DNA of 64,000 nucleotides from a virus (lineage: Duplodnaviria; Caudoviricetes), in the IMG/VR virus record IMGVR_UViG_3300030330_003013, positions 2,669 to 66,668 of that record. The stretch is one strand, 5' to 3'. Below the pieces are notes generated by a model, which ran no database searches, had not been told where the DNA came from, and worked only from the letters and a program-made list of their open reading frames with translations. Below, piece by piece: positions 8,741 to 64,000 of this stretch; the first letter of the stretch is position 1, and each line of letters opens with the position of its first letter. The position numbers and the translations under genes are program-made.

Positions 8741-9024
8741 CTCCTTCCCCTGTCTCTCGTAGGTATATTATGGCGTTTAAGCCAATTGTTGATAGTCATA
8801 GCAGTTACTCCACATTCGGTCGCTATTTCTTCCATAGTCTTCCCTTCTATACAATATGCTTCCTCTAACCATAGTTTGTCCTTGAACATACCTTCCGGCA
8901 ACTTAGCATAGACCATAACGCTAATCCCGTAGTGTTTGTTGCATTCGGGGCAAACATAAGTAGCAGTAGTATTCGGTTGCAAGTTTGCGCTGAATCTGCA
9001 CCCACAGGAACAATCAACTAACAT
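8737..9024 (-). CDS. Zinc-ribbon + HTH DNA-binding protein
   Basis: CSCG...CPEC followed by KTMEEIATECGVTAMTINNWLKRHNIP. Likely start MLVDC at 9024. Confidence 0.75.
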   Translation of the reverse strand: MLVDCSCGCRFSANLQPNTTATYVCPECNKHYGISVMVYAKLPEGMFKDKLWLEEAYCIEGKTMEEIATECGVTAMTINNWLKRHNIPTRDRGRR

Positions 9025-19248: not shown

Positions 19249-19393
19249 TGCATTACTTCCGGCTCAAATCTATTCTTTCTGAAAGAATACAAAGGCGCAG
19301 TAATCTCTTTGGTTAATTCTTTTTATTCACTATGGGATATTTTTCTTAATCCGTTTCCTGTAAATGCCCCATAGGGAATAGAATTATTGCAAC

Positions 19394-19425
19394 AAACCGC
19401 TTTACTGCGAGCCTGTATTTTTTCC
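19394..19425 (+). repeat. Dispersed copy of the 24-bp motif
   Basis: 19404-19425 matches the reverse complement of 39021-39042 at 21/22 positions; 19394-19417 matches 39132-39155 at 22/24. Confidence 0.8.
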
Positions 19426-20112
19426 TACGAGGGGCTGAATCAATTGAATATATTGTAAATATTCCAACTCATCCACTTCCTCTTCAAACATATTTAGTTT
19501 GAATTGGTGGTCTCCGACCGCCTCACACGGCATATCATAGTGTTCTTCGATAAACTCCGCAACGCTTCCTTCCTTTCTTGCAATAACGCCTTTTCGTGGC
19601 CTTACTCCGCCTTCGCCCAAAATCAATATCAGCGATTCTTTGGGGCTCTTGAGAATTGCAAAAACCACATTTTCTCCATCAACAAACTTTAGAGAACAGT
19701 CCATATCCCCCTTCTTTGTAGGCAACAAAAGGATTCTTCTTCGGTTGGCCTTTGCAAAACCGCTTTCTTCAACATCAAAACAAACATATTCCACCTTGCT
19801 TTCCTCTATGATGAATTGCAACTCCTCTATGACTGTGAATTGTTGCACATCAAAGGCATAGCCTTTCATCAATGCGTTCAATTCTGTTCTTCTCAAGCCT
19901 TGATGCAAGCAATCGAGGAAATCCCAAACCGCATTGTAGCCTTGCAAAACTATTTCGTATCCGCCGACTTGCAAAACAATTTGTGGGCTAAAACGCCTCC
20001 TTTTTCTCTCTCCTCTTTGCACTAAACGCCACGCTTGAAAATCTTTGACGATGATGTGTCTTTCCGGTTTTGCAAATAGATGCTTACCGCCTATAAGCAC
20101 CGGATGCCTCAT
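19402..20112 (-). CDS. Hypothetical protein
   Basis: 236-aa ORF with no recognised motif; its stop codon overlaps a copy of the 24-bp motif. Confidence 0.6.
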   Translation of the reverse strand: MRHPVLIGGKHLFAKPERHIIVKDFQAWRLVQRGERKRRRFSPQIVLQVGGYEIVLQGYNAVWDFLDCLHQGLRRTELNALMKGYAFDVQQFTVIEELQFIIEESKVEYVCFDVEESGFAKANRRRILLLPTKKGDMDCSLKFVDGENVVFAILKSPKESLILILGEGGVRPRKGVIARKEGSVAEFIEEHYDMPCEAVGDHQFKLNMFEEEVDELEYLQYIQLIQPLVGKNTGSQ

Positions 20113-31560: not shown

Positions 31561-33387
31561 TCAGACCGCGCCTCCAATTGGTGTGGTGATTGGCTCAACA
31601 CCCGCTGGAATCAGCGAAGCCGATTCCTCCCATGAATTGAGACCACCGATACGATTTGCAACAACTTGCCTCTTCGACTCGTCATTGAAAGGAACAATCC
31701 AGCGAGCAACGATTGAAGGCATTGTCCAACCGGAATGAGCAAGGCTCATACCGACTTCTAATGCTCTATAACTCATTGGGATTCCCATTCGGGAAGAGTC
31801 GGCCAAATCTTTCAACTCATTGAACGAGTCGAAGACTTCCTGTGGAGTTGCTGGCTCACCTGCTGGGCTCTCTTCCGCCTCAACCTTTCCAGCATTGGAA
31901 AGACCGCAGATATGAGCCATGATTCGGTTAGAATGACCGAATGCGACAAAGCCTCCAGCGAATCGGTCAAGAAGCGAAGCGTCTTGCTTTTGAGCCGCCG
32001 CAAATCGAGGGGATTTTGCAAATCCCGTAGTGTTTGCCGCCGCCACGATGTAGCAATCCTTGCTAACCGGAATGACCTCGCCTGTAACCGGATTTACAAG
32101 TTGTCTCGATGCTAAAACTCCGTTTAGCAAAGTTGCAACTGCTGGGTCGGCTTTATCCAATTCATCAACAAAGGCTACGCCGCCATTGATTAGAACAGTA
32201 GTCAGACCGCTCATATTCCATTCGTTGTCTGAATTGAGGGAGTATTTGACTCGACCAATCAAGTCGCCTTTCTCCATATCTGCGAAGCAGATAACCTCTT
32301 TGAAGTCATGTTCTTTAGATAGCAAACCCACTTCTTGAAGAAGTGCATGGAACATCTGAGCGGCATGAGACTTGCCTGTTCCAGCATCTCCGGTCATCAA
32401 GACCGGATTAGGGAAGCCACGAGTTGCAAGACCAGCAGTCATAATCCCTAACGCAGTAGGGAAGTGAGGATGATAGACACTTCCGGATTTTGCAACTATT
32501 TGCTGACCCTTGATTACTTCAAGGGTTCTGACCGGAGCGAAGGACTTGCTAAACTGTTCGATTACACCGCTTGCGGTTTCGTGAGCAATCCTTCTTACGG
32601 TCTCCTCGTCAATTGCTTTTCCAGCAATATTCTGAATCAACTCGATAAGTTGGCCTTCTGCACCACCTACGGTGGTAGATTTTACAACCTTCGGTTGGGT
32701 CTTTGGTTCAACAACCTTCGGTTGAGGAGTTGGCTCAACCTTTGGTTGTGCTAAGATAACCGAGTTGGAATTGAAGGATTGCATTTCCCTCCTTGCTTCT
32801 GCTGAATAAAACGCATCAGAAGAGGCTGGCTGACTCCATGAATGGGCTCTATCAGCCAAACTGAGGAAGTCCAGCAACTCAGTTAATCCGAAGTATAGGT
32901 GAAGGTATGAAATGACCTTTCCTGTTTCTTCTGACGGAGTTTTGGAAGCCTTATGGCTTCTATAAGCACCGATGGCGTAGCCATTTCGGATTCCACATTC
33001 AAAGTGAAGCCACTTTGAGTATCGGTTTCCAAAGATAGCACTATCACCGTTGCTTAGGAAGTTTGCAACTTCTCTTCCCTTCATGGCTTCGCCACAACAA
33101 GGGCAATCAGAATCTTGGTGGCCTTTGGCTCGATAGATATTCGCTCCACCCAATCTTTTGATTCGCCGCCTAACTTCGTTAATTTCGCTATCAGTAATCG
33201 CAAACGACTTTGATACGGAGAGAGTTGCAAGTCCTACAATAGAGAGGACTGTGCTTATCTCCGCACTAAAGCCGCTAACCACTACTCCGAAGAGTAGTAA
33301 AGCGGCAACTACTACTCCTACGGCATTCATTATTCCGGCATCTCCTAAATCAGTCAATCTCGACCTCATCACCCTTGTCGGAGGCAC
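31561..33387 (-). CDS. MoxR/CbbQ/CobS-like AAA+ ATPase with N-terminal TM and zinc-finger extension
   Basis: Walker A GDAGTGKS, Walker B FVDELD, AAANT, QDASLLDRF. The N-terminus has two hydrophobic segments and CPCC...WLHFEC. Probable start ATG 33369. Confidence 0.85.
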   Translation of the reverse strand: MPPTRVMRSRLTDLGDAGIMNAVGVVVAALLLFGVVVSGFSAEISTVLSIVGLATLSVSKSFAITDSEINEVRRRIKRLGGANIYRAKGHQDSDCPCCGEAMKGREVANFLSNGDSAIFGNRYSKWLHFECGIRNGYAIGAYRSHKASKTPSEETGKVISYLHLYFGLTELLDFLSLADRAHSWSQPASSDAFYSAEARREMQSFNSNSVILAQPKVEPTPQPKVVEPKTQPKVVKSTTVGGAEGQLIELIQNIAGKAIDEETVRRIAHETASGVIEQFSKSFAPVRTLEVIKGQQIVAKSGSVYHPHFPTALGIMTAGLATRGFPNPVLMTGDAGTGKSHAAQMFHALLQEVGLLSKEHDFKEVICFADMEKGDLIGRVKYSLNSDNEWNMSGLTTVLINGGVAFVDELDKADPAVATLLNGVLASRQLVNPVTGEVIPVSKDCYIVAAANTTGFAKSPRFAAAQKQDASLLDRFAGGFVAFGHSNRIMAHICGLSNAGKVEAEESPAGEPATPQEVFDSFNELKDLADSSRMGIPMSYRALEVGMSLAHSGWTMPSIVARWIVPFNDESKRQVVANRIGGLNSWEESASLIPAGVEPITTPIGGAV

Positions 33388-33954
33388 ACCTACTTAAGAC
33401 TCTTACTTCGCATAATGCACACCGTCTGAGTTTTGACTTGCAAATTGTTATTTCCGAATACCCAAAAATTATCAGCAATTTTCCAAACAATACTCCGTAG
33501 TATTGTTTGGTAAATCACATACGGATACATTGTGGCTGGATTTACAATCCATCCACAACACAGACGGAGGCCTGTGTAATCTCCTATTGAAGATATGAAG
33601 CAAAAATCTTCGATTTATTGCTTATATCCGCGTGGATTTGCGCGCAAGTCCTCCGAAAAATCGGCAGTCATTTGGAGGCGTATATGAGGCACATATCAAG
33701 GACTTCGCAAAGAGACTTCTGATGACTCTCCCTGCGTGAAGTCCGGTGCGCGAGTTGATTGATTTTCTAAGACCGAATCGGCCTAATATCCGGACTACGG
33801 TATCAACTCGTTGATACCTATTGACTATATTAGCCGGACAATTTTGCTTGGTGGTTATTACATAACCAACTGCTGAATCCAAAAAATTGCAGAAGATTCT
33901 TCGCCTTATCTTGACTTAATCTCCGATTACTGTTTGATAAGCAAAAAAAGAGTT

Positions 33955-33991
33955 GGAGGAGGCCAACAGTCGAAGACTGCCGACCCCCTCC
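33955..33991 (-). terminator. Stem-loop followed by a T-tract on the - strand; candidate terminator downstream of 34058..34915
   Basis: GGAGG...CAGTC-GAA-GACTG...CCTCC, preceded on + by AAAAAAA (33943-33949). Confidence 0.5.
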
Positions 33992-34057
33992 GGATTTGCA
34001 ACTTTTCCCTAACTTGATTTTACCTCCTTATTCGATTTCCAATCTTCGATTGAACCC

Positions 34058-34915: not shown

Positions 34916-34986
34916 GCTTTTTCCTCCTGTTTTTATTAACTAAGTCTCCAAAAAAAAAATCAAAATCGCTTGACTGCGGCTTTGTT

Positions 34987-35541
34987 TTACTCATCCAACT
35001 CCAACATTAGCAACCCTAATTCAGCAACCAACTCAACCGCTGAAAATGACGCTGTTTCGCTGATTTCGTGATGTTCCCAGCCATCTAATTCCGACCATTC
35101 CATAAACTCCATTTCGGTCTCAAGAATGAAGGACTGCGACACTATTGCTGATGTTGAATAGACCTCATATTCTCCGCTGATATTCCGGACAGTTGCAAAT
35201 ATCTTCAATTTCTCATCCGGCTCAACATCGGCTGGAATTACTGAGGTCATGGATAGGATTTCCGGCGAATATACTCCTTCGGAGTATAGATTCTCAACGG
35301 TGGGTAATCCAACATCCATTTTTGACGCTGGATAGAAAGTGAAGTGAAGATTGGAAGAAAAATTGCTCTCAATCCACACCTCTTTTTCTGACGGGAAGAC
35401 CCCGTAGGGGTCTTCATTCTCCGCATTCTCGGTTCGGTCTTCACGCTCGTTTCTATGGTAGGACACCATGACCTCGACTAAAGGTCTGAAAAGTAAAGGT
35501 TTCCTTCTTGCAAATAGGCTCGCAGTCCATCGTTTTTGCAA
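34987..35541 (-). CDS. Acidic hypothetical protein
   Basis: 184-aa ORF from TTG; a likely internal ATG (MVSYH) lies near 35469. Confidence 0.55.
   Translation of the reverse strand: MQKRWTASLFARRKPLLFRPLVEVMVSYHRNEREDRTENAENEDPYGVFPSEKEVWIESNFSSNLHFTFYPASKMDVGLPTVENLYSEGVYSPEILSMTSVIPADVEPDEKLKIFATVRNISGEYEVYSTSAIVSQSFILETEMEFMEWSELDGWEHHEISETASFSAVELVAELGLLMLELDE
35514..35535 (-). repeat. Dispersed copy of the 24-bp motif
   Basis: The - strand reads AAACGATGGACTGCGAGCCTAT. Confidence 0.65.
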
Positions 35542-35710
35542 CTTTTAGGGCTTTGAGATTTGCAACTTTTTGAGGCCAAAAATGACGGGGCTGGCGGCCC
35601 ATGCTACACGCCAACCCCCTCTCGTAATTTTTTTATTTTTTTATAGAAAAACCTATATATTTTATAAATCTTAGATAATCTTAATAAAACAGAAGGAATT
35701 AGTCTTATTT

Positions 35711-36034
35711 ATGCCTAAGAACCGACAATTGCAAGATGTAATAATGGGCCACCACATTAGAGACGGAGAAGTCGAAGCAACAGACCTCGCTTCAGCCGTA
35801 ACTGATGTATTAGCAGACTATGCTGTGGAAGTAACTACCGCTGGTGGTAGTGCTACCGAAGCACTAACTGTAGCCGGTGTAACTACTGCATCTAAGATTA
35901 TCGCAACCCTAAAGGATGACGGAAGCAACAATGTAACCATCAAGACCGCAAAGGCCACCGGTGCAAACACCGTAACAGTAGTGTTTTCCGGAGACCCTTC
36001 CAATGATGCAATCGTTGCTATCCTTGCATTCTAA
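35711..36034 (+). CDS. Small A/T/V-rich virion structural-like protein (decoration or fibre)
   Basis: Beta-rich composition; AT-rich TATA-like upstream region (TTTATAAA 35661-35668); converges on terL. Confidence 0.6.
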   Translation: MPKNRQLQDVIMGHHIRDGEVEATDLASAVTDVLADYAVEVTTAGGSATEALTVAGVTTASKIIATLKDDGSNNVTIKTAKATGANTVTVVFSGDPSNDAIVAILAF

Positions 36035-37536
36035 GGTCTGAACGATACAAACTTACCATTAGTGGTCGGATTACGAGGCGTAGCCTTTCCTTTCCAACTA
36101 TTAAGTGATACTCCCGCTGATACCATAGGGGTGTTAGAGGAAGAAGTAATGTTTTGGAATTGGTCTATTGCGTGTGCGAGAGCCATAACTATATCGTTAT
36201 GTCTTCCCTTATCAACAATTACTCCGCTATCCCAAGCGTGAGTTTCTAATTCTTGCAACAATTCATTTACTATTGTTCTCGTTTCATGGTCTCCGTAGGG
36301 GAATACGATTTTACCCTGTTCAAACCATGCTCGCATTCTCATTAGAAGACCTTGCTTTAGAACCCTGTTTGATACGGGGCTGGGTCTGTAGTCAATATTC
36401 GCACCCATGTTTTGCAACAAAGACTGATAGAGTCTTTGGAATCCAGCAGACTCCGCCGCAAAGATAGGGTTTTTGTAAGTAGTGCAAAGTCTAATTATTT
36501 CATGTGCTTGTTTGCTCGGCTCAAAATCATTTCTGCGCCATATATCAACAAGATGCAAGAATCCTTCTTTATCTTGTCTCATAACAACCATAACAGAATA
36601 GTCCTTACCTATACCATGCGAGGGGTCAAACCCAATAACATATCTGCCTTCATGTAACTTTTCTTTCTCTAATACAGATTCCATCCCTAAGTGTTTTCTT
36701 GTAAGGTGTTGGGGAAATACGGCGGAGGCATCATCAACTACACGACATAAATACTCTTGAGAGAATGCTAATTCACCCATAGCCTGTCTTTGCTCAAGCA
36801 AGAAGTTAATCGGTCTAAACTCCGGCCATAACGCTATGGCCTCTATTTCTTCGGGGTTCTTAGCCCATTCATCATAATTTAATACGCTTCCTTTCTTCCA
36901 TGAAGCCCACGCTTCATTTTCAAGCATTTCTGTGTGGTATAAGTCTGTAAGAGAAAGTGGCGTTCCAACAACAAAAATAGATGTTTCGGGGGAAAGCATA
37001 GGTGTTAGTTTTTTTCTAAACCATTGTCTAATATCATCATCGGTTTTATCGCCGCCATCATCTAACACATCGTCAAGAATGATTCTTGCGGGGTGTTCTC
37101 CACGAATAGCAGAACCAACAGACGATGCCTTAATCCATGAACCATTGGTTAGTTGCAACTTCCATTTGTTACTTTTAGACTCATCAATCATTCGGGATAA
37201 CTCCGGATGCCTTTTTAGGTCATCTTTGATTTCTTCAAGACGATTAGCGGCTAAGTCTTTGCTGGCGGAAAATAACCATGTAGTAAAAGGTTTGTTACGC
37301 CATCGTTCAAATAGCAGACTGTGTAAAGCCTTGACTCTTAGCGTGGTGGATTTGGAATGGTCTCGTGGTGCAATCAATAAAACACGATGCACACTTTTAC
37401 CCTGTCTATCATTGAATAGGTCAAACCATTCTCCTATATGGTTGCCCCATGTGTAACCCAACCATTCATAGAAGTGTTTATGGTCGTATCTGCTTCTTTG
37501 CAGATTAAAGTTAGTTAGTAAGTCATTTCCTTTCAT
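36031..37536 (-). CDS. terL: Terminase large subunit
   Basis: LIAPRDHSKST (Walker A), IRGEHP, IILDD (Walker B), VGTP, IGFDPSHG and DIVMALA nuclease motifs. Confidence 0.95.
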   Translation of the reverse strand: MKGNDLLTNFNLQRSRYDHKHFYEWLGYTWGNHIGEWFDLFNDRQGKSVHRVLLIAPRDHSKSTTLRVKALHSLLFERWRNKPFTTWLFSASKDLAANRLEEIKDDLKRHPELSRMIDESKSNKWKLQLTNGSWIKASSVGSAIRGEHPARIILDDVLDDGGDKTDDDIRQWFRKKLTPMLSPETSIFVVGTPLSLTDLYHTEMLENEAWASWKKGSVLNYDEWAKNPEEIEAIALWPEFRPINFLLEQRQAMGELAFSQEYLCRVVDDASAVFPQHLTRKHLGMESVLEKEKLHEGRYVIGFDPSHGIGKDYSVMVVMRQDKEGFLHLVDIWRRNDFEPSKQAHEIIRLCTTYKNPIFAAESAGFQRLYQSLLQNMGANIDYRPSPVSNRVLKQGLLMRMRAWFEQGKIVFPYGDHETRTIVNELLQELETHAWDSGVIVDKGRHNDIVMALAHAIDQFQNITSSSNTPMVSAGVSLNSWKGKATPRNPTTNGKFVSFRP

Positions 37537-37777
37537 CTGTTACACCTAATGGGTCGCCGCCTACAAACATAGGAAATCCGGTCCATTCTGCGAGAAAATC
37601 AACGAGAGATTCAACATTTGACCTATCGAGAATAATACTTGCAATTTCATAATCGTCTATCTCTAAACAGAATACTAAATTATCTGTATTATCTAACATA
37701 GTGCCTACTATAAACTCTTCGCAATCGGAAGTCCATGTTTCAGAAATTAAAAAGTCATCAACCATATTACTCACCAT
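37523..37777 (-). CDS. Small acidic hypothetical protein
   Basis: Tiles between terL and the phosphoesterase gene. Confidence 0.55.
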   Translation of the reverse strand: MVSNMVDDFLISETWTSDCEEFIVGTMLDNTDNLVFCLEIDDYEIASIILDRSNVESLVDFLAEWTGFPMFVGGDPLGVTDERK

Positions 37778-38960
37778 TTAATACACGAAGGGTCTCTAAC
37801 CCATCTCTCAAATCAGAAAAGACTTGAATGTGTCTTGCATCGGGGGATAATATGACTAAGGGGCAGGTTGCTCGTTCTTTTTGGAAACCAATCATTTCGG
37901 AATAACCATCTATGATTTTGTAACTTCCCGGCCTTACCGCCCATCTCTCAAGACCATGCCGTGTAAAGTTTTCAATAACGGGTGTATGGTGATGACCTAC
38001 TACTCCTATATCAAAATCGGACTCGCCATCCTCCCACATCTTCTTAACTACACGAGAAGGATTGATGTTTGAGTTACCCCTGCGCTTATGTCGTATAGCA
38101 AAGTTATACGGTATCTTACCGTTCATTATTCTAATGTTTAACTCATGGGGATGATACAGAATGTTTCTATCAAGCACTTGGCGGCTTAGTGGGTCGTAAT
38201 CAGTCATGCCGCTGGTCCATAGGTCGTGATTACCAGCAACTACTGCAAGAATCTTATCTTCAAACATTGATAGGTAGTGGTCGCAAAGTTTCCATTGAAC
38301 GCTCGGTGGAATTGTTGCTTTCATACTCGGTCGTGGTTTGTCTATTACAAAGTTGTCTATGAAGTCGCCAGCGTGTATAGCGTAACAGTTAGGAGTATTT
38401 GCAACTAATTCAGCATCCTCACGCATTCGCTCGTGGTCGGTGTATTTGTTTCCGATATGTTGGTCGCTCGCAAGAGCGATACCGAGATACTTACCGCCCT
38501 CAAATGTTATTTCAGCCCATCTTGCATTTTCTGCCTTTCGTATGTTTTCGCCTGTTGCGGTTTCGATAGCATCCCATACATCGGCTATTTGAGTCGGCTC
38601 ACCACCAAAAGTAGTAGTGATGAAGTTAGGTCGTTGCTTCTTTTTGATTAAGCCCTTAACCTTAGCATCATGTATTCTCATCTCCCATGCTTTCATTGTT
38701 ATTTCGGGCCTTCGTGCGTGTAACTCAATAGCAAGAGAACGCCATGTGCCTTCCCATTCATCGGGCAATTCTTCGTATGGGTCTTCTATCAAAAAGTCAA
38801 TTTCACCAAACTCATGTTGATACCTTTCAACACGCTTCTTCCATGTTGGGTATTTAACCGAAGGGTCAATACCATGCAGATACTTAGCAAACTGTGCGGA
38901 GTTTGGAAAAGTATTTGCAACTTTCAGATGTTCATTGATGAGGTCATATACTCGGCTCAT
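37767..38960 (-). CDS. Calcineurin-like metallophosphoesterase with duplicated N-terminal helical module
   Basis: SDQHIG, HAGDFID, VAGNHD, IRHK and VGHHH motifs. Confidence 0.85.
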   Translation of the reverse strand: MSRVYDLINEHLKVANTFPNSAQFAKYLHGIDPSVKYPTWKKRVERYQHEFGEIDFLIEDPYEELPDEWEGTWRSLAIELHARRPEITMKAWEMRIHDAKVKGLIKKKQRPNFITTTFGGEPTQIADVWDAIETATGENIRKAENARWAEITFEGGKYLGIALASDQHIGNKYTDHERMREDAELVANTPNCYAIHAGDFIDNFVIDKPRPSMKATIPPSVQWKLCDHYLSMFEDKILAVVAGNHDLWTSGMTDYDPLSRQVLDRNILYHPHELNIRIMNGKIPYNFAIRHKRRGNSNINPSRVVKKMWEDGESDFDIGVVGHHHTPVIENFTRHGLERWAVRPGSYKIIDGYSEMIGFQKERATCPLVILSPDARHIQVFSDLRDGLETLRVLNGE

Positions 38961-39018
38961 AAAATACCCTAACCATTACTGTGTTATAATCATTCTTTCA
39001 AAATGGATTCAATTATGT

Positions 39019-39165
39019 CCGGAAAAAATACAGGCTTGCAGTCTATCGTTTTTTTTATTAATTCTAATCACTATAAGAGTTTTTTTTAGGTTCTAATCTT
39101 AAATACCTTATAGGAAATAAAACTAATACAAAAACCGTTATACTGCGAGCCTGTAATATTTCCGG
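39019..39165. repeat. 24-bp imperfect inverted repeat flanking an AT-rich spacer at the strand-switch
   Basis: CCGGAAAAAATACAGGCTTGCAGT (39019-39042) versus ACTGCGAGCCTGTAATATTTCCGG (39142-39165): 4 mismatches. Confidence 0.8.
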
Positions 39166-39222
39166 AAACAAATAGACAGAAACAGAATTAAATACGAGTC
39201 TTGATAAATCATTTAATATATT

Positions 39223-39513
39223 TTGCGGAACATGGATGAATCAACATTAGCGGTAATGGCGAGATTGGACCTTGTAAGAGATGATGTTAGCGATATGAAA
39301 GTAGAAATGAGAGAACACACGAAGGCTCATCATTCGCATTCACAAAGATTGCTTTCCGTTGAAAATAGCGTGAAAAATATAGAAGAAAGCCAAGATATGA
39401 TAATGAATGGACCAATATACAGTCTCGATAGGTTCATAACAAAGCGAGTAGCGCAAGTAACAGGTGGGTCGGGAATCCTACTATATGTGTTATATCGTCT
39501 GATTTTGGGCTAA
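39223..39513 (+). CDS. Coiled-coil protein with C-terminal TM helix (lysis/holin-like candidate)
   Basis: Heptad-rich N-terminus; hydrophobic GGSGILLYVLYRLILG C-terminus. Confidence 0.6.
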   Translation: MRNMDESTLAVMARLDLVRDDVSDMKVEMREHTKAHHSHSQRLLSVENSVKNIEESQDMIMNGPIYSLDRFITKRVAQVTGGSGILLYVLYRLILG

Positions 39514-39545: not shown

Positions 39546-40940
39546 ATGGGTATATTCGATAGATTCCGGCCACAACCTAAAAAGCCGGAAATTGACTTCT
39601 CTCGTGCGTGGGCGGGTGCGAGACGGGCAGACTCCAGCGAAAACCCTTTGCTGGTTAAAGCCGCCGCCGGTCTAACAGACATAATGGAAAACACAGACAA
39701 ACTACGGGCTAACTCAAACTACGAGACTAAGTTTGACCGATATGACGATATGGTTAATTACGACCCCGAACTAAACGGTGCGGTTCGTGCAGTATCACTA
39801 ACTGCGAACAATTACACTATCAACTATCGAAACGCAAAGAACGCAACTATCCGAGAAGCAATCAGACTTTTAGTTGAAGAAACTCTTGACTTTGATGATT
39901 TGTTAATCAATGGTATGCGCTCACTAATGGTTTATGGGAACGACATAAACAAATTGGTCGGAAGAACAGGAGTAGGTATAGAAGATGTGCAATCATTACC
40001 TGTGGCTCAAATTACAATTACCGATGGAAGGCCAAGCACACAAACAACCGACAGACTAAACCCAATCATCGAAGCAACCGATTATATTCTTCGTGAAGGA
40101 GACTCCACAGAAGAAAGATTTAGCGCAGATGAAATACTACATATTAGAATAGACTATCGGAGTTATTGGTTTTTGGATAACGAAAACCGCCAAACATACG
40201 GTGTATGGGGTGCATCTCGTTTTTCCTCACTTGAACAGGCTATCCGTGTAAAATACAACACCATGAACCACAGATTAGCATTAGAAGAATCCATGACTAA
40301 ACAATTCATTACAATTGATAGGTCAGCCATAGAACACATATCAGACCCCGAAGAACAAAAGGCGAGACTCACATACATTATGGATGAAGTAGTAAAGACC
40401 CTTGAATCGCTACGAGGAGACCAAATACCTGTTTTCCCCGATTACATCAAGATTCACCACACCGACACAAGAAACACAATACCCGATAATACTTCGTTTT
40501 TGGATACAGTAAATGCAGATATTGCCGCAGTATTGCAAGTGCCGAGAGTTGCAGCGGGTCAAGAGCGGGGCTCAACATTTGCGGCAACCTACAATGCTAA
40601 TGTTTGGGCCTTGACTGCTATACGCAGACTGCAACAGGTTTTGGTTCAAGCAACAACAGACTTATTTTCAAAGCATCTTGAGTTATTAGGTATTGAACAC
40701 CAAAGAAAAGACCTTCCTCGATTAGAGTTTGAGCCTGTGGAAGACGAATCCCCAACAGTTAAGATGCAAAGAGCAGCACTCGGTTATAATGCTGGTATCC
40801 TTGACTTAAACCAATCATTAGAGATTTTGAACGAACCTACTATTGGAAGAAAAGGAAATGAGCGCAAAACTCAAACATCAAACACCACAGGAAGGTTAGA
40901 ACGCCGAGATTCCCAGCCCGGTGTTGAAGATGATTCTTGA
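39546..40940 (+). CDS. Portal protein
   Basis: 464 aa; LMVYGN, FSADEILHIR, YGVWGASRF and IAAVLQVP portal-like motifs; first large gene of the head module. Confidence 0.85.
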   Translation: MGIFDRFRPQPKKPEIDFSRAWAGARRADSSENPLLVKAAAGLTDIMENTDKLRANSNYETKFDRYDDMVNYDPELNGAVRAVSLTANNYTINYRNAKNATIREAIRLLVEETLDFDDLLINGMRSLMVYGNDINKLVGRTGVGIEDVQSLPVAQITITDGRPSTQTTDRLNPIIEATDYILREGDSTEERFSADEILHIRIDYRSYWFLDNENRQTYGVWGASRFSSLEQAIRVKYNTMNHRLALEESMTKQFITIDRSAIEHISDPEEQKARLTYIMDEVVKTLESLRGDQIPVFPDYIKIHHTDTRNTIPDNTSFLDTVNADIAAVLQVPRVAAGQERGSTFAATYNANVWALTAIRRLQQVLVQATTDLFSKHLELLGIEHQRKDLPRLEFEPVEDESPTVKMQRAALGYNAGILDLNQSLEILNEPTIGRKGNERKTQTSNTTGRLERRDSQPGVEDDS

Positions 40941-41417: not shown

Positions 41418-41723
41418 ATGGCTCTCACAATTAGTCTTGATACCGGAATTGGTGTATCGTTTAATACGGCACACGCAGTAATAAAAGAGTTTGTAATGAA
41501 CAAAATATATGACGAAGAGGGAAATAAATCCTTTGTTATTACCTATTCCGGCCTAATTTATGTTGATGTCGCAAAATATACTGCAAACAAAGCACCTGTA
41601 AGTGGTTTTAATTTTCAATTTAACCTTGATGTAACAGATGAAGCAGACCAACACAACTTGCTAAAACAATGTTATACACATCTTAAAACTCAAGATGGTT
41701 TTACAGAAGGAGTTGATGCTTGA
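41418..41723 (+). CDS. Small virion-associated hypothetical protein
   Basis: GGTGA RBS; beta-rich; C-terminal CYTHLK motif common in phage proteins. Confidence 0.6.
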   Translation: MALTISLDTGIGVSFNTAHAVIKEFVMNKIYDEEGNKSFVITYSGLIYVDVAKYTANKAPVSGFNFQFNLDVTDEADQHNLLKQCYTHLKTQDGFTEGVDA

Positions 41724-41859
41724 TGAATAGTATATTTTGTTCCTTTTGCACACTTGGAAATTGTATAGATTGTGAAATCATAACGGATGGTGAGTAAGTG
41801 GTGTATGACGGCCACCCTATATGGGTGTCCGTTCTCCGCTTTTTTGGGGTGATTATCTA

Positions 41860-48171: not shown

Positions 48172-51100
48172 ATGCCGATAAGTGATAGCCGAAACCTATT
48201 CACGGACACCGAATCAAATAGAATCGGTGTAACTCCGGATGGGGCGCAACTTTTCCGAGACACTTCAAGTGGTATGGTTTTCGTTGGTGATGGAACAAAT
48301 CTTGGAGGACACGCAATAGATGTAAGACCTCCAAAAGACATTACCGGAACAACACATACCCTCGTTAGAGAAGACGAAGGAAAAACATTAGTTGTAAATA
48401 ATGCAAGCGGTTGCACTATTACTGTTCCCCCCGAATCATCAGTTGATTGGCCTACAGGATATACAGAAATTAAACTATTCAATAAGGGTGCTGGAGATAT
48501 TACTATTGCCGCTGGAAGTGGAGTAACAGTAAGTGGTGAAACTACAATTGTTCAAAATGAACACGGTATTATCAAAAGTATATCTGCTGATTCTTGGATT
48601 TCTGTTCTGTCGAGAAACGCAACAGGTCCGATAGGACCGACCGGCCCAGCCGGTCCGACAGGACCAACAGGGGCTACAGGTCCTACCGGTCCGACAGGGG
48701 CTACAGGTCCTACCGGTCCTACCGGACCGCAAGGAGATGAGGGAGATGCTGGGCCAACCGGACCTACAGGTCCAACCGGACCTACAGGTTCAACCGGACC
48801 TACAGGAAGCACAGGGGCAACAGGACCACCCGGAAGCACAGGGCCTACAGGCGCAAGGGGTAACAGAATCGGTCCGGAATATGTGTTTAGCACTACAACT
48901 ACTGATGCTGACCCAACTGATGCTAAAGTTAGATTTAATAATTCCACTTTTTCCTCAATAAGTAAAATCTATATTGATGATGAATCAAGAGGAGGAATAG
49001 ACCAACAAGCGTGGTATAGAACATGGGATGATTCAACCTCAACAAACAAAGGAACACTTGTTTTTGATTCAGCAGATTCGGATACTGACGCACCAATAAT
49101 TTTTACAGTAACAGGAGTAACAGAAGCAACAGGATACTTCAAAATAGATGTAACCCCGCTTTCCGGTTCTATCCCTTCTAATGATGCGGCCATAGTAGCA
49201 GAATATACTCCAAGTGGTAATGTTGGAACAACAGGACCTACAGGACCTACAGGACCGGCTGGACCTACAGGGCCTACAGGACCTACGGGTTCAACAGGGC
49301 CGACCGGACCACAAGGAACGGCTGCCGGATTTGGAACGCCTACTGCTTCAACCGGACCGGTTGGTGTTACAGCAAGCGGGCCGGATACGGCAAAGGTGTT
49401 TGCCTTTTCTATCCCTCAAGGTGCTACGGGGGATACAGGCCCAACAGGCCCAACAGGCCCAACAGGACCTCAAGGAACGGCGGCGGGTTTCGGAACACCT
49501 ACCGCAACTACAGGTCCGGTGGGAGTTACCGCAAGTGGTCCGGATACTGCTAAGGTATTTGCATTTAGCATACCTCAAGGTGCTACAGGCTCAACCGGAC
49601 CGACAGGACCGACAGGACCGACCGGTCCGGATGGTCCTACAGGTCCTACAGGACCTACAGGCTCAACAGGAACGGCGGCTGGCTTTGGAACACCTACCGT
49701 TTCTTCCGGCCCTCTTGCTATCACTTCAAGCGGGCCGGATACCGCCAAAATATTCGCTTTTACAATTCCTTCGGGCGATACAGGACCAACCGGCCCTGCC
49801 GGTCCTACCGGCCCTACCGGTCCAACAGGTCCTACGGGTTCAACAGGACCTACAGGACCGGATGGTCCGGATGGTCCAACAGGCCCTACGGGTGCAGCAG
49901 CAGGGTTTGGAACACCTACGGCTACCACCGGTCCTATCGGCGTTACTTCATCCGGTCCGGATACATCTAAAGTTTTTGCCTTTTCCATACCTGCTGGTGC
50001 AACAGGGCCAACAGGTCCAACAGGGCCAACAGGTCCAACAGGTCCAACCGGTGCAGATTCAACGGTTGCTGGGCCTCCCGGTCCTACAGGACCTACAGGA
50101 CCGGCTGGACCTACGGGTTCAACGGGGGCAACAGGTCCTACCGGACCTACAGGACCGGCTGGAAGCACAGGACCGGAAGGTTTAGTGTGGGAAGGAAATT
50201 GGGCTACTTCGACTTCGTATCAAGTGGATGATGCGGTGTATTATACGGTTGAAGAATCATCATATATTTGTATTCAAGCACATACCTCTTCCGGTTCTAT
50301 ACTACCTACTAACACTTCTTATTGGAGTCTTTTGGCGGCTCAAGGAGATACCGGACCTACAGGTCCTACCGGACCTGCTGGACCTACAGGTCCTACCGGA
50401 CCAACAGGCCCTACCGGTCCTACGGGTGCTGATTCAACAGTAGCCGGACCAACAGGCCCGACAGGACCTACAGGCCCGACAGGACCAAGCGGTCCTACAG
50501 GACCGGCTGGAAGTGATGGAGGAACAGGACCGACAGGACCAGCCGCAGGGTTTGGAACGCCTACAGCAACTACAGGCCCTATTGGTGTAACCTCAAGTGG
50601 GCCGGATACGGCTAAAGTCTTTGCTTTTTCAATACCTGCTGGCGCAACCGGTCCAACAGGACCTACAGGGCCTACAGGCCCTACAGGTCCGGCAGGTGAG
50701 GATGGTTCAGATGGTGCTACAGGACCAACCGGACCGACCGGACCAACAGGCTCAACGGGAAGTGCCGCTGGATTCGGCACTCCAACCGCCAGCACCGGAC
50801 CAATCGGTGTTACCGCAAGTGGTCCGGATACAGCAAAAGTCTTTGCCTTTTCTATTCCAGCAGGTGCTACCGGACCAGCAGGGCCAACCGGACCTGCTGG
50901 ACCTACCGGACCTACCGGACCTGCTGGACCTACCGGACCAGCAGGTGATGACGGTTCAGATGGAGCAACCGGACCGACCGGACCTACAGGTCCAACCGGA
51001 CCTACCGGACCTGCGGGTTCAACAGGACCGACAGGACCGACCGGAACAGCGGCAGGTTTCGGCACACCTACTGCTACTACCGGTTCAATAGGTGTAACGG

Positions 51101-52536
51101 CCTCCGGACCGGATACAGCAAAAGTGTTTGCGTTTTCTATACCTGCGGGAGACACCGGACCTACAGGTCCAACAGGTCCAACAGGTCCGACAGGACCAGC
51201 AGGGCCACCCGGACCTACAGGGCCAGCGGGTAGTGATGGTTCAGACGGCTCGGATGGTTCAGATGGTGCGGCGGCGGGATTCGGAACGCCGACCGCCAGC
51301 ACAGGGCCGATAGGAGTTACTGCTTCCGGTCCAGCCACCGCAAAAGTATTTGCTTTCTCTATACCGGCGGGTGCAACAGGACCAGCAGGGCCGACAGGCC
51401 CAACCGGTCCAACAGGCCCTACCGGACCTGCTGGTTCGACCGGTCCGACAGGACCAAGTGGGGTTGCGGGCGGCATAGATGATTTAACGGATGGAAAATC
51501 CGGTGGAACAGATTTCACAGGGAGTTTGTTATTAGGCCACCAAACCACAGGAACATTAAGTAGTGCGGTGTATAACACAGGTGTTGGTATTACCACTTTA
51601 GATGCTTTATCAAGCGGAACGAATAACACCGCTATGGGGTGGGCCGCCGGAACGGCAATATCAACAGCAACAGATGGTGTGTTTATTGGAAAACAGGCCG
51701 GAACGACTAATAGCACAGATAGTAGGGTTGTCGCTATTGGTTCTTCTGCTGGTAAAAATATAGGATTCGGTTCAACCGCAGTTGGTTTTTGGTCTGGGAT
51801 TTGGTCTTTGGCTACTAACTCAGTTTGTATTGGTTATGGGGCTGGTGCAAGAGGAACGTCTGATGCTACGAAAAATGTATTCATAGGAGATATGCCTACT
51901 TATGGCGGTGATGGAACATTTGAGGGAGATTACAATATCGGTATTGGCGATAGTGCTATGTATGCAATCAATGGAAGTGCTAACTATAATATAGGTATTG
52001 GAAGACAGGCTCTTTATACACCCGATGATGGTTCAGACTACAACACAGGCATAGGCTACCGAGCCGCTTACTTGGTTAGTAGCGGGGATAAGAACATCTG
52101 CATTGGAACAGAATCGGGCGATAATATCACCACAGGGTCGAACAACCTTGTAATTGGTAGCGGTGATGTTTCTGACCCTACAGGAGACGACCAATTATTG
52201 ATAACTTCCGGTGATGGTGGAGTTACTTGGTTTAAGGGGAATGCTAACGGATTAGTAGCAAATAAAATTAGTGTAGTAGCCATAACAACCACAACAACAC
52301 TAACTGACGAACAATCGGGCTCGTATGTGTATGTAACAGGTAGTGGTGCGCCCACCCTACCTGCAACCGCAGAAGTAGGCCAACAATACACTATCATTAA
52401 CAACACAGGTTCAGATTTAACACCCGGATTGGGAACAAGCAACAGTAGCATTCCGAGTAGCCACACCGCCATATCTGATGATGCAGCGAGAACCTATGTT
52501 GCGGTTGCCGCGAATACATGGTTCTTTGTGGGGTGA
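48172..52536 (+). CDS. Collagen-like fibre/adhesin protein
   Basis: Long Gly-Pro-Thr triplet runs interrupted by eight ~35-aa globular repeats; one CBM5/12-like insert (WEGNW...YQVDDAVYY...YICIQAHTS...YW); C-terminal N-T-A-x-G beta-roll repeats. Confidence 0.9.
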
Positions 52537-53126: not shown

Positions 53127-53669
53127 ATGAAAATAAATGTTAATATTCCCGCTGGTGTGTCCGGTGATTTTGAAATAGCCCACTACACTAAAGACACGAC
53201 TGATAATAGGTGGCCTCTTTATTTGCTTCATACCAATGAGGCTTATGATAATTATACTGTATTATTAAAAAAAGGCTACAGTATGCCGTTAATGCAAGAC
53301 TCAGAAGCAGAATACAACGACCACCAATGGTTGTGGGATAATGCAGAAGGAGATGTAATTATTGGCGGGTTAGGCGTTGGTTTAGTTAATCATGTTTTGA
53401 TAGATAATCCGAATATTACATCAATTACTATTGTTGAAAAGTATCAAGATGTAATAGATTTAGTATGGGATAACTGCGCTAAAGACGAGCGTTTTAATCT
53501 AATACACGCAGACATAGAAACATGGGAAATACCTACCGATAGTCAATGGGATATTGGCTTCTTCGATACATGGATTTCAAATGATGATTGGGATTTAGAC
53601 GAATACAAAAATAATATGATAGAAAAATATGGTCCTTATATTACAAAAATAAATGGTTGGTGTTGGTAA
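53127..53669 (+). CDS. Class I SAM-dependent methyltransferase (spermidine-synthase-like fold)
   Basis: VIIGGLGVGL (motif I), ITIVEK (motif II), LIHADI and WDIGFFDTW. Confidence 0.85.
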   Translation: MKINVNIPAGVSGDFEIAHYTKDTTDNRWPLYLLHTNEAYDNYTVLLKKGYSMPLMQDSEAEYNDHQWLWDNAEGDVIIGGLGVGLVNHVLIDNPNITSITIVEKYQDVIDLVWDNCAKDERFNLIHADIETWEIPTDSQWDIGFFDTWISNDDWDLDEYKNNMIEKYGPYITKINGWCW

Positions 53670-54261
53670 GTTTATTAGGAAAGAAAAACTACCACATATC
53701 ATGGAACACCCAAATTGGTTACTATACGAAGGAGTCCTTAGCGAAGAAGATTGCAAGCGTTGGATTGACTTAGGCCGACAAGCACCAAAGCAAGAGGCTA
53801 AAACATTTAGAACCGGCGAAGGCGAGTCTGATGCTCACCGCAAAACAGACATTAGATGGCTTCCTAATGTTGGGCCATACACCGAAATGCACGACTTTTT
53901 AATGAAAGTTGCTATGGATGCTAATAAAAGATTCGGTCTTACTCTTACAGAATTACCGCCATTACAATTTACCGAGTATTCAGATGTAGGCCACCACTAC
54001 GGAATGCACCACGATATAGATTGGAACAGGCAAGACGGCAAGCACAGAAAATTGAGTATTGTCGTGCAACTGACCGACCCCGAAGATTACGAGGGAGGAG
54101 TATTGTCTTTTGCACACACACAAAACCCCGACCCCGAAGCACTAATTAAGCGAGGTTCTATCATTTGCTTCCCTTCTTATTTAGAACACGGAGTATCCCC
54201 TATAACATCGGGTTCAAGAACAAGTCTTGTAGGGTGGTTTGAAGGACCACGCTGGCGATAG
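53653..54261 (+). CDS. 2OG-Fe(II) oxygenase (prolyl-hydroxylase-like)
   Basis: QFTEY...GMHHD...RKLSIVVQL...YEGG...FPSYLEHGVSPITSGSRTSLVGW (HxD...H...R); likely start MEHPNW at 53701. Confidence 0.9.
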   Translation: MVGVGKFIRKEKLPHIMEHPNWLLYEGVLSEEDCKRWIDLGRQAPKQEAKTFRTGEGESDAHRKTDIRWLPNVGPYTEMHDFLMKVAMDANKRFGLTLTELPPLQFTEYSDVGHHYGMHHDIDWNRQDGKHRKLSIVVQLTDPEDYEGGVLSFAHTQNPDPEALIKRGSIICFPSYLEHGVSPITSGSRTSLVGWFEGPRWR

Positions 54262-62300: not shown

Positions 62301-62839
62301 CGGCTTATGCTAACAGAATGGCCGACTTAACTCAGTATTTTGGTTATAGTGAGGCAGATGCGGAGGCAATAGTTGATAGAGAAGGAATAGCGAGATATGT
62401 GGTTGAGTATGCGGATGGAACGGGTGCTATATTTAAGACGCATGAAGAAATGGAAGCAGATAGACAAAGGGTAACTCAAGAATCTAATGCTAAAATTATA
62501 GAAGATGGCGAAGCATTAGCGGCTTCTTATGAGTCATTGTATGGAACAGTATTAAGTGCAGTTTATGCCGCTGATTCGGAAATATCCGGTTTAGTTAGTG
62601 GCTCATTAGAACAAATGAACGAGTTTGCAAGCGCAAGAGAAGAATTGTTTTTCGGAAGTCAAGCAAACTTTCAAGGGGCAATATACAAACAAATTACACA
62701 AGGGGGAGTTGAAAGTGTTTTGCATAGAGTTGAAATTATACAACATAACCACTTTAACGGTATGACTTTACCGGAAATGGTAAGCCAAGTTACAGAAGGA
62801 GTAATAGTTGAGATGAGAGGACAAGGTGTGCCGATATGA
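59384..62839 (+). CDS. Tail tape measure protein
   Basis: 1151 aa, helical and Ala-rich; TP901-like TMP core, coiled coils and hydrophobic segments. Confidence 0.9.
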   Translation: MASRTGSARVFFEIVGQFQAERLLKDADSAAVVTKAIWLDAAGGIVEAFEFAFDGIRDLVEENIESFKAYEEQLIQVRKFYQGSEEDIMKFADASMYLGETFAFSGAEALKAAAQMAQMKTVLGSPEAVIAGTEMGLLFAEIGNMDTQLAMKRMTSLMQQTGFALGGLTQAQYDNLDAHTQAQVVMSNTMRVLDQLNTIENSSVATMEDMTFVLNQFSAQGNLAGESMASMAAFAAILLEAGEETSRAGTGLRMIYSRLAVDGGDASEAIAEVVPHLDATTVSTMSLSGVLDELIPYYVQLSDIEKVRLTQAIAGNRHYVKLQKVIENHERYITLTGMAYSGTYGAVEEFENRQESMKFKIDKANALIENQRALVGDNLAKAYVKSLEPQYQFLKLLEKSTDESNKYSASLGGLEVSVKDTLENILLLGAAVEQLSLPLNFAMGLGNILISAQAFGAINRQTRELQSFHTEAYGRRVYMMEQEKQMKLASLFDIEQASKTSYDAMMQRTQRQYAINLTNSKRNKLRVQQLKLQNKELEKQVLLLDMTKSKDVVKSVQLQKEIQGNKDLIEIGMQKSQMQLAEYQTQKAIFQQRNAYEKGMQAYYKLSIGQRANQVKQQKALSGAIQNTYNNMANEVVVFRALTEEERKSIVTRAQANQVQATNIQLRLSEMRIKLQTAKLTDEEREALLGLIAVEEEHLRNLGEEIAKDEILLHADEQRIKNIRREAQEATVLGQVMDNLHGSREAHQRTMRNAVSIGTGLLGIYSMTAKSARDMEAAMYGIIIAQGLYQTAMFISKKRTDGYTASVIMAQMATNIFYGAIVAVVAYMGGKALANALNLSSAFDDLSSSTEEMTNNFGDFESVLKELSMKGEESVLGNIVEASYNDLRNSEEVAKNAQAVLENQITTYDDLMKAHDPESAEYKSAQVSHAIALQKKKEVDAIVDAHKGADGIYAQYVEDTINEVDKLNYEMTSAYANRMADLTQYFGYSEADAEAIVDREGIARYVVEYADGTGAIFKTHEEMEADRQRVTQESNAKIIEDGEALAASYESLYGTVLSAVYAADSEISGLVSGSLEQMNEFASAREELFFGSQANFQGAIYKQITQGGVESVLHRVEIIQHNHFNGMTLPEMVSQVTEGVIVEMRGQGVPI

Positions 62840-64000
62840 GAACCACATCAAATACACTTAACATTTGGCTTGCCGGATATTATGATGATTTTATGTCTTG
62901 TAGGTCTGTTCCCGATGATAGCAACGCTTCAACTGTAAGAGATATAGACCATACCGCAACACATCACGGAAACCCAATGAACGGAGAAGCAACACTTAAT
63001 CCCCGTTATAGATACTCATTACCCGACAGGTCTCAACTTGCAACTTATGAAAGTGCAAATGATAATCTTACAGCAGATGTATTTTTTGCAACTTCTTCTG
63101 TTGCAACTATTTCTAATTCGGGGATACACGAATGGCTTACCCTCGACACAATACGAAGAGGTTATAATAATTGGGAAGGGCGAGCGCAGTTGCAATATCC
63201 GGATTCAAGGCGTGGCTCAAGGCAACGATTTAATGGGGCGGCTGGTGATTCCTACGAGGCTTTTGTAAATGGACACGATACAAGAGGCGTTTATTACGCT
63301 CCTCTCGGAGACATTGATTCCACTATGGGAAGGTCTCGTGTTATATCAAGGGCCGCTCGTGATAGCAATTCGACAATGTATATCGGTGCTGGTTCTCACC
63401 AGCAAGCAGAAAGAGCCGGTCATACTACTACTCATTCAATATCTCTTGCAAGTATTTTATCCGGCGAAAGAACAGACAAAACTACTACATCATCGGGGGC
63501 AAATAGAGGAAATGCAAGAAAGCATCTATACCCTCTTCGTTCTCCCGCAGGGCAACCGTTTTTAATATCAAAACTCCATCAAAAGGAAACTAATACTTCC
63601 GGAGGGAATAGATATAGGATTCTAAACTATGATGGTAAGATGCAGTTTTCCGGACTCGGTGATACATTTAACATACGAATGGCCTCGCATACATTTGGTG
63701 ATTGGGCGGGGCAACAATACACACTAAAAATAGGTTATCCGAAATCGGGTGGGTTTAATAAATCCACACAAACATTTAGTGGAACACCAGCAATAACAGT
63801 TAATATACCTATAAGTGATTTAACAAGTGGTAATTTAGAAATAGATACCTATACCTATGGAAATAATAATAATTATTGGGATGATATAGATATAGTTATG
63901 GACTTTACCGCTCAAACATACAAAGTGTATATTGACGGCACACAATTAGGAGGAACGGGCTCTATGGCTGGAAGTTACCAGCCCGATGATATATTCGGGT
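62836..64000 (+). CDS. Tail-tip/baseplate protein, 3'-truncated (not in ORF track because there is no stop)
   Basis: ATGA overlap with the TMP stop; MRTTSNTLNIWLAGYYDDF... stays open to the window end (388 codons). Confidence 0.7.
   Translation, partial: MRTTSNTLNIWLAGYYDDFMSCRSVPDDSNASTVRDIDHTATHHGNPMNGEATLNPRYRYSLPDRSQLATYESANDNLTADVFFATSSVATISNSGIHEWLTLDTIRRGYNNWEGRAQLQYPDSRRGSRQRFNGAAGDSYEAFVNGHDTRGVYYAPLGDIDSTMGRSRVISRAARDSNSTMYIGAGSHQQAERAGHTTTHSISLASILSGERTDKTTTSSGANRGNARKHLYPLRSPAGQPFLISKLHQKETNTSGGNRYRILNYDGKMQFSGLGDTFNIRMASHTFGDWAGQQYTLKIGYPKSGGFNKSTQTFSGTPAITVNIPISDLTSGNLEIDTYTYGNNNNYWDDIDIVMDFTAQTYKVYIDGTQLGGTGSMAGSYQPDDIFG

Follow-up and report, generated by a model that had tools for sequence, protein, structure and literature searches.

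What is the role of the intergenic DNA from which the two gene arms of this virus diverge? For the abundant uncultured tailed viruses of marine archaea we know of nothing experimental on the layout of gene expression or on the start of replication, and the locus, described in the original prediction as a pair of inverted 24-bp boxes around an AT-rich spacer, had been proposed to be either an origin of the virus or a late-gene switch acting in both directions. We analysed it within the window, by which we mean the whole stretch of 64,000 nt, comprising positions 2669-66668 of a virus record 66,668 bp long; the full record is called G000 here, and its coordinates minus 2668 are those of the window (the left box at the strand switch, for example, lies at G000 41691-41728). 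With a probability that we put at about 0.6, the locus is a transcription-control region composed of two mirror copies of a virus-specific intergenic repeat of ~60 bp.

A palindrome between two divergent gene arms

The genome is tightly packed, a greedy ORF map leaving 15 gaps of at least 60 nt. The arms diverge as had been described, with a minus-strand ORF starting at 38960 and the first plus-strand ORF at 39223 (TTG); the likelier start of the latter is the ATG at 39232, which is kept in all 8 aligned relatives. Leftward, minus-strand genes run from 38960 down to 3253. The two arms include the following genes:

37767-38960, minus strand: metallophosphoesterase / SbcD-Mre11-like exonuclease, first gene of the leftward operon
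between the phosphoesterase and the large terminase, minus strand: 84-aa gene
36031-37536, minus strand: large terminase, third gene of the leftward operon
31561-33387, minus strand: AAA_5/MoxR-like ATPase, weakly MCM-like
12295-13239, minus strand: RFC small-subunit homologue (E 2e-35 to archaeal RFC)
6497-8740, minus strand: family B DNA polymerase
elsewhere in the minus-strand arm: PD-(D/E)XK nuclease, ERCC4 nuclease and many small genes
39232-39513, plus strand: first rightward gene, 93-96 aa (PHROG 1863, unassigned role)
39546-40940, plus strand: 464-aa gene, second gene of the rightward arm

The rightward arm also encodes a staphylococcal-nuclease homologue, cement and decoration proteins, a collagen-like tail fibre, a minor tail protein and a tape-measure protein. 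The 464-aa protein is without a match in Pfam, PHROG, NCBIfam or PDB sequences, and that it is the portal is a guess from gene position alone. The RFC small subunit, the family B polymerase and the ERCC4 nuclease are replication genes of archaeal type, and since the polymerase is closest to those of haloarchaeal tailed viruses (23-25% identity), we treat the virus as infecting a marine archaeon; on gene affinities only, it is probably a tailed virus of such an archaeon, and uncultured. The single relative of the 464-aa protein among species genomes lies on a 4,256-nt contig of a bin labelled Rhodobiaceae; this contig is most likely mis-binned viral DNA and says nothing about the host. The 4 kb around the strand switch gave no nucleotide match among cultured phage and virus records. 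The ATPase, previously taken for an MCM-like helicase, does bear a weak likeness to MCM, but its match to AAA_5 is much stronger (1.2e-17 against 1.1e-6 in the profile scores), and its matches in the PDB are midasin, NorQ and MCM2 (E 1.5e-4 to 6e-3). The statement that the virus has no recognisable Orc1/Cdc6 was borne out, in that none of the 58 Pfam-scanned proteins matches such a family.

At the strand switch itself, the inverted 24-nt boxes are real, lying at 39019-39042 and 39142-39165 with 21 of 24 positions complementary, as is the very AT-rich 99-bp spacer between them (39043-39141; 21.2% G+C against 43.4% for the window). Their description as a 24-bp pair nevertheless understates the length of the repeat: the arms extend over 65 nt each (39013-39077 and 39107-39171), are 78% complementary and enclose a centre of 29 nt. 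We refer to the resulting palindrome as element A:

39013-39171: element A, 159-bp imperfect palindrome at the strand switch
39023-39060, plus strand: A-left box, with an A-rich stretch, GCAGT (39038-39042), N4, CG, T8 and a TATA-like tail pointing right (inward)
39071-39077, plus strand: inner motif CTATAAG of the left unit, at +33 to +39 from GCAGT
39107-39113, minus strand: inner motif of the right unit (CTTATAG on the plus strand)
39123-39161, minus strand: A-right box, with ACTGC at 39142-39146 on the plus strand and a T-rich tail pointing left (inward)

Each 65-nt arm thus amounts to a complete unit, and those at A are in facing orientation. Element A is the longest of the 8 inverted repeats listed for the window, the remaining 7 being located in the collagen-repeat gene (6) and at 52.7 kb (one). 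Across 8 relatives, a footprint of the whole gap is mirror-symmetric well past the palindrome. The 24-mer, with up to 3 mismatches, has 3 matches in the window where 0.00 would be expected, a count that none of 100 shuffles reached, and the third of these sites (19404-19427) lies within a second, similar palindrome, designated locus B.

Copies, direction and conservation of the box

The element is not unique to the strand switch: two further loci, B and C, carry the same box. Altogether, the ~35-nt box (A-rich, GCAGT-N4-CG, T-rich tail) occurs in six copies at three loci of the 66.7-kb genome, and all six lie within or border the genome's few non-coding gaps. The core pattern GCAGTNNNNCGNTTT has 5 matches where 0.15 are expected, and 0 of 100 shuffles reached 5. 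The boxes at C were located by means of a profile of the palindrome arms. The copies outside element A are:

~19282-19423: locus B palindrome, between two co-directional minus-strand genes
19282-19321, plus strand: B-left box, the degenerate partner, with its tail running into the upstream gene in antisense
19391-19423, minus strand: B-right box, strong, overlapping the stop codon of a 236-aa gene and with its tail toward a 120-aa gene
34956-34989, minus strand: C-left box, directly after a 184-aa ORF
35512-35545, plus strand: C-right box, with its tail toward the plus-strand 107-aa gene at 35711-36034

The 120-aa gene after locus B opens the replication block. The C-left box is followed by runs of T4 and T10, an AGGAGG and the ATG of a 285-aa gene, with 62 nt from GCAGT to ATG. 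A consensus derived from 56 aligned boxes of this genome and its relatives consists, in order, of an A-rich stretch, cGCAGTAnAnCG and a T-rich tail, TTTtTTtATT; within cGCAGTAnAnCG, the GCAGT and the CG are nearly invariant. In elements of the window type, TTCTATTCnCTATAGGGTATTT follows at a fixed distance after the tail, the copy in the window reading CTATAAG. The spacing between tail and inner motif shows almost no indels in 11 aligned elements, and the inner motif ends ~24-26 nt past the centre of the tail. Such a distance from tail to inner motif equals that from TATA box to transcription start in archaeal promoters.

Related sequences were collected with two queries, the phosphoesterase, which gave 31 related loci, and the 464-aa protein, which gave 328 related stretches; the analysis kept the best 80 of these. 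The expectation that the element is conserved was confirmed in five fuller-length records, G001-G005, where boxes occur at the corresponding three loci, with the weaker member of some pairs in G001 and G003 passing a looser threshold only. The layout in these five records has A at the strand switch, C ~3.5 kb off, past the terminase, and B 17-20 kb off. Two of them, G002 and G004, carry exact end repeats of 119 and 123 nt and are most likely circular assemblies. Among the best 80 of the 328 stretches, 58 have at least one box (E of at most 0.05) within 700 nt upstream of the 464-aa gene. The orientation of the boxes varies considerably across these 80 loci: the tails point inward, as in the window, in 8, and outward, directly before the 464-aa gene, in 35, a flipped polarity that was confirmed by eye in L086, L100 and L113. 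A single box is found with its tail toward the 464-aa gene in 11 loci and in the opposite sense in 3, and two direct boxes occur in one. No box was found in 22, including five (L062, L069, L076, L085 and L091) with scant upstream DNA or a failed coordinate estimate. In the flipped clade a 490-aa gene replaces the phosphoesterase, and the order of terminase operon, element and 464-aa gene is retained.

The direction of the units was tested on 31 non-redundant boxes, with GCAGT as the anchor; the target was an ORF that opens with ATG, encodes 60 aa or more, and starts on the matching strand at most 220 nt away. Following the tail, a co-oriented ORF start is reached within this distance from 30 of the 31 boxes, compared with 20 of 30 in the opposite direction, and the distances from GCAGT to the start cluster at ~52-65, 90-97 and 181-216 nt. 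Since a divergent gap offers a co-oriented gene either way, only the cases at B and C-left inform direction. In these non-divergent cases (B-right in G000, G002 and G003, and C-left), the well-kept box faces the downstream gene, the lone exception to the rule that the tail points to a gene being the degenerate partner at locus B of G002. An alignment of locus B from five genomes shows the same asymmetry within the palindrome: the arm facing the downstream gene retains the box, the tail and CTATAGG; the opposite arm retains a weak box and the tail, and has lost CTATAGG in 4 of the 5. From the core to the nearest start, the distance is 78-102 nt in the window type, compared with 90-97 nt in the flipped type.

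Closer to the genes, a further pair of blocks is conserved:

39202-39209, plus strand: proximal TATA-like octamer TGATAAAT, with the ATG at 39232 lying 30 nt downstream
38983-38990, minus strand: mirror octamer ATTATAAC, with the phosphoesterase ATG (38960) lying 30 nt downstream

In most of 8 aligned relatives the first of these is represented by a conserved block, GTGATAWATC, after which the conserved ATGGATGA belonging to the first plus-strand gene follows at ~30 nt. Its counterpart on the other side, CCTTATnAA, is likewise conserved in relatives ~30 nt before the phosphoesterase start, and the gene that comes first after locus B is preceded, at 30 nt, by an invariant block of similar kind, TATAAACC. 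The first genes are without a good ribosome-binding sequence, and internal genes have AGGAGG-like ones; given this lack and the 30-nt distance, the proximal blocks look like TATA boxes for leaderless messages. Either, then, there would be two promoters per first gene, or the units would regulate the proximal promoters. The similar core-to-start distance in both polarity classes fits units that act as regulatory sites, and the asymmetry of the arms at locus B fits the option of two promoters.

Probable transcription control and its alternatives

How could such units act? In the transcription-control reading that we favour, the order within the unit (an A-rich stretch, GCAGT-N4-CG, a T-rich TATA-like tail, and CTATAGG or CTATAAG ~34 nt past GCAGT) would be that of an archaeal-type promoter, with GCAGT-N4-CG as an upstream motif on the BRE side, read by a viral or host factor, the T-rich tail as the TATA box, and CTATAGG as the start-site region. 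If the tail is indeed the TATA box, an archaeal start would be expected just past 39071-39077. The two units at A would then fire toward and across each other, from predicted starts at ~39080 rightward and ~39105 leftward, giving leaders of ~125-150 nt from each unit to the gene on the far side, and they might occlude one another. The same unit also heads the other main blocks, at B before the replication block, and at C around the 184-aa gene, before the 285-aa and 107-aa genes. Alternatively, the boxes could dock a regulator of the proximal TATA-like elements 30 nt upstream of the first genes, which would produce leaderless messages. That the unit itself is a promoter is a tentative proposal, to which we would give roughly one chance in three, and that the boxes serve solely as an operator or upstream site is more doubtful, at about one in four. 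The direction assigned to the putative promoter follows from motif order and distances alone. No sequencing run on record as RNA contained the region, and contigs from four runs contributed a few short pieces of low depth in the flanking genes and none across 38.8-39.6 kb, a result that weighs neither way. Two observations speak against a promoter unit: the units at A face each other ~25 nt apart, with leaders that would be unusually long for an archaeal virus, and the conserved proximal TATA-like blocks already resemble working promoters. The 35 flipped relatives, with their similar distance to the start, fit a docking site that is indifferent to orientation as well as they fit a promoter. 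As for the earlier choice between an origin and a bidirectional late-gene switch, transcription control describes the locus better and an origin was favoured by no test; since the box also heads the replication block, the term late-gene switch is too narrow.

Promoters and terminators of bacterial type were also sought. The sigma-70 sites found in the gap numbered 3 where 2.3 are expected, and the terminators found 0 where 0.2 are, and this candidate was dropped, as was a small terminator hairpin within the box (CGC...GCG followed by T's), the third pair of which is unconserved across the 56 aligned boxes. The sequence CACTATAG resembles promoters of single-subunit RNA polymerases; a T7-like promoter was rejected, with no RNA polymerase family found among 58 Pfam-scanned and 41 PHROG-scanned proteins.

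The capacity of element A to fold was assessed at the level of both DNA and RNA. The region folds far better than expected, with z = -5.35 as DNA and z = -6.7 (plus strand) and -7.2 (minus strand) as RNA, 0 of 200 shuffles being as good in each case. The hairpin of the window's own sequence was further imposed on 11 aligned elements, a procedure that biases the pair counts toward the hairpin. Under it, 76.8% of the cells pair, compared with 73.1 +/- 0.9% after shuffling and ~42% when the partner is slid, covariation is 0.164 against 0.118 shuffled, and 19 pairs are changed on both sides against 14.1 +/- 2.0 shuffled, all of these pairing figures being inflated because the structure comes from one sequence and the sequences are related. 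RNAalifold on a MAFFT alignment recovered just a 7-bp inner stem and a 3-bp stem, and not the full hairpin. The mismatches within the dyad are without strand bias (G.T 32, A.C 24), which fits duplication at the DNA level better than a selected RNA hairpin. From these sequence comparisons we conclude that the dyad symmetry is conserved at the level of DNA and that a selected RNA hairpin is poorly supported; some pairing, or gene conversion, between the arms is possible.

The most substantial alternative is the one raised originally, namely that the boxes bind a viral initiator, that the interior with its 21% G+C unwinds, and that replication proceeds bidirectionally along the gene arms, or, as a possible hybrid, that transcription from the units primes replication, as it does at the origins of T4 and T7. 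The inverted boxes around very AT-rich DNA invite such a reading; the element is conserved in relatives, and with no recognisable Orc1/Cdc6 another initiator is conceivable. Among 100-bp windows, the interior of A also ranks third from the bottom of the genome in stability (-107.6; mean -133.3, sd 7.8). In G001, G002 and G003, A or B is found among the 8 windows of lowest stability, and in G004 B alone is; the least stable DNA of the genome, however, lies elsewhere, at 35621, beside the C-right box. Low stability of the A interior fits an unwinding element and promoter-rich intergenic DNA equally. The cumulative GC skew does turn at 39 kb, as an origin would predict, with its minimum in the 38-39 kb bin, but its sign tracks gene orientation throughout the window and is positive over the plus-strand gene at 1-3000 too, so that replication and transcription are inseparable by skew, which carries no independent weight. 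An origin is further difficult to reconcile with a box present at three loci per genome, with a polarity toward the spacer that is reversed in 35 related loci and a single box in 11, with the decay of one arm at locus B, and with boxes at C that lie ~500 nt apart and whose weaker left match in G001-G004 (at the looser threshold only) is in direct orientation. Its neighbours, moreover, are a phosphoesterase-terminase operon and the structural arm, and not a replication initiator. We therefore regard an origin at A as unlikely, at something like one chance in six. One could also speculate, at odds slightly longer than these, that GCAGT-N4-CG is the recognition site of a new replication initiator in an archaeal virus lacking Orc1/Cdc6, and that the three loci are origins or promoter-origin hybrids, the latter opening and priming their 21% G+C interior by transcription from the facing units; if true, this would explain why the box loci rank among the least stable DNA.

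The remaining alternatives turn on the palindrome as a structure. It might form a cruciform, or a pac-like or DNA-entry signal bound by the terminase, and the surroundings lend this some appeal: the element heads the operon with the large terminase and sits between the terminase operon and the head genes, the order of terminase operon, element and 464-aa gene persists in distant relatives without the phosphoesterase, the predicted hairpin is highly stable, and two relatives assemble as circles, fitting headful packaging. On the other hand, a genome should have a single pac site and here three loci carry the box, the single or flipped boxes of relatives would yield a different hairpin, the arms are just 78% complementary, and no pile-up of contig ends at the element was noticed by eye among the related loci, a comparison made with no null model. 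On balance, a packaging or structural signal seems improbable. Less probable again is that the gap holds a structured non-coding RNA hairpin or was the landing site of a selfish miniature inverted-repeat element. The RNA fold scores, the presence of two similar palindromes in one genome and the pairs changed on both sides could all be cited for one or the other. Against the RNA, no Rfam 15 family was found at its gathering score (the 8 matches at E of at most 1 reach at best 39.9 bits against 144, and are to plant miRNA hairpins except for one to the sar antisense RNA, 20.2 bits against 43), G.U is not in excess over A.C (32 against 24), and the consensus fold retains only the inner 7-bp stem. 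Against a miniature element, copies are found at 2-3 loci only, and the three syntenic positions are constant across viruses whose flanking proteins are ~60% identical, which argues against recent insertion.

Relation to known systems

Archaeal origins consist of inverted ORB or mini-ORB boxes around an AT-rich unwinding element beside orc1/cdc6. Element A resembles them in its inverted, asymmetric ~35-bp boxes ~100 bp apart with 21% G+C between, and differs in that there is no orc1/cdc6 nearby or among the scanned proteins, in that polarity varies among relatives, and in its occurrence at three loci per genome, one with a decaying partner box; according to the original prediction, the box also departs from the canonical ORB. 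Another point of comparison is provided by the PeSL cassettes of T4-type phages, in which sigma-70 promoters and short stem-loops recur in many copies between small early genes. The likeness here is that of a repeated intergenic cassette, combining a putative promoter with dyad-symmetric DNA at the borders of gene blocks; the present element differs in having three loci, archaeal-type motifs and 65-nt arms.

The closest described system is the set of intergenic repeats of the halovirus HF2 (PMC8707807). These are 58-bp and 29-bp repeats with upstream, TATA and start-site blocks, the TATA lying at -26; all 9 of the repeats tested had promoter activity, their positions are conserved genus-wide, they head an 18-kb polymerase transcript and a 35-kb morphogenesis transcript, and one of them, IR12c, located where the coding strand changes, shows activity either way. 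HF2 and this virus have in common several short intergenic repeats that are conserved in position and sequence among relatives, a copy at a strand switch, and units of three conserved blocks, spread over ~58 bp, that head the replication and structural blocks, a likeness of layout for which we claim no sequence similarity (PMC8707807). The HF2 repeats described there are single units, in contrast to the two facing units that form a 159-bp palindrome here, and this virus also stands apart through a polarity that is reversed in a sister clade and through its additional TATA-like blocks near the genes; promoter activity was measured for HF2, whereas here we infer it (PMC8707807). Searched by term, the magrovirus paper (PMC5434244) makes no mention of inverted or terminal repeats, promoters or palindromes, and the Poseidoniales virus paper (PMC11706807) none of promoters, inverted repeats, a replication origin, intergenic DNA or palindromes. 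No description of this box was found in the literature searched.

For viruses of this kind, a strand switch with inverted repeats and AT-rich DNA is thus insufficient for calling an origin. The sequence of the box offers a bait for the factor that reads it, for which a 110-aa HTH protein encoded at 8737-9069 is one candidate, and the 159-bp palindrome of two units is a compact test object for archaeal promoters that face each other. As a box that heads gene blocks, it can help to delimit transcription units when the hundreds of related metagenomic contigs are annotated.

The surroundings of the GCAGT boxes at locus C

At locus C, two copies of the GCAGT box, the repeat of about 35 nt found at loci A, B and C, lie around a short acidic reading frame:

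34956-34989, minus strand, C-left box
34987-35541, minus strand, 184-aa acidic ORF, with a C box on either side
35512-35545, plus strand, C-right box

The two boxes around this ORF are inverted in the present genome and in its close relative G005, and in the other four fuller-length related records (G001-G004) locus C holds a weaker left-hand match that is direct in orientation and about 500 nt off. Because the listed TTG start of the 184-aa ORF overlaps the C-right box, the real start probably lies further inside the frame. Next to the C-right box, at window positions 35621-35720, the genome reaches its lowest stability, with G+C of 19% over 100 bp and 10% over 60 bp; this stretch precedes a plus-strand gene of 107 aa, and a GC-rich dyad (about 35584-35600) stands directly upstream of it. 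In G004, the least stable window is found at the equivalent spot.

A separate observation concerns the gap 33883-34057, which holds an imperfect GC-rich hairpin on the minus strand (about 33945-33992), with the tip CAGTC-TTC-GACTG and a run of seven T directly after it. The hairpin with its T run has the appearance of a terminator, while the tip is similar to a condensed GCAGT box pair.

A dispersed 11-mer

When up to one mismatch was allowed, the 11-mer AAAGTTGCAAA was found 35 times across the window, against 2.6 copies expected, and none of 100 shuffles contained as many. Example copies are:

33995-34005, 11-mer copy
35535-35545, 11-mer copy
35559-35569, 11-mer copy
38914-38924, 11-mer copy

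The copies are mostly co-oriented with the genes: by our own count, 18 of the 23 in the minus arm lie on the minus strand, and 9 of the 12 in the plus arm on the plus strand. Since G005 has 29 copies and G001-G004 only 1-3, the 11-mer is a lineage-specific motif.

Structural genes, the window start and a binned relative

The structural arm includes the following genes:

48172-52536, plus strand, 1,454-aa tail-fibre-like protein whose sequence includes 10 stretches of collagen triple helix (Pfam, E 1.9e-56)
53127-54261, plus strand, methyltransferase-like gene and 2OG-Fe(II) oxygenase-like gene

The tail-fibre-like protein also has a weak carbohydrate-binding module, and its repeats account for six of the seven other inverted repeats listed for the window. 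A paper on viruses of Poseidoniales (PMC11706807) reports that the genes of one such virus include both a 2OG-Fe(II) oxygenase and a metallophosphoesterase.

After the tape-measure gene comes a single uninterrupted reading frame, 1,975 aa or longer, that spans the window start, from positions 3-2666 of sequence L115 on into window positions 2-3265 (plus strand). Its 1,078-aa window part had no match in Pfam or PHROG. If the genome is circular, the frame may be a continuation of the 3'-open ORF 62836-63999.

Among species genomes, the sole relative of the 464-aa protein encoded at 39546-40940 (plus strand) was on a 4,256-nt contig (L135) in a bin labelled Rhodobiaceae bacterium; this contig is probably viral and was placed in the bin in error.
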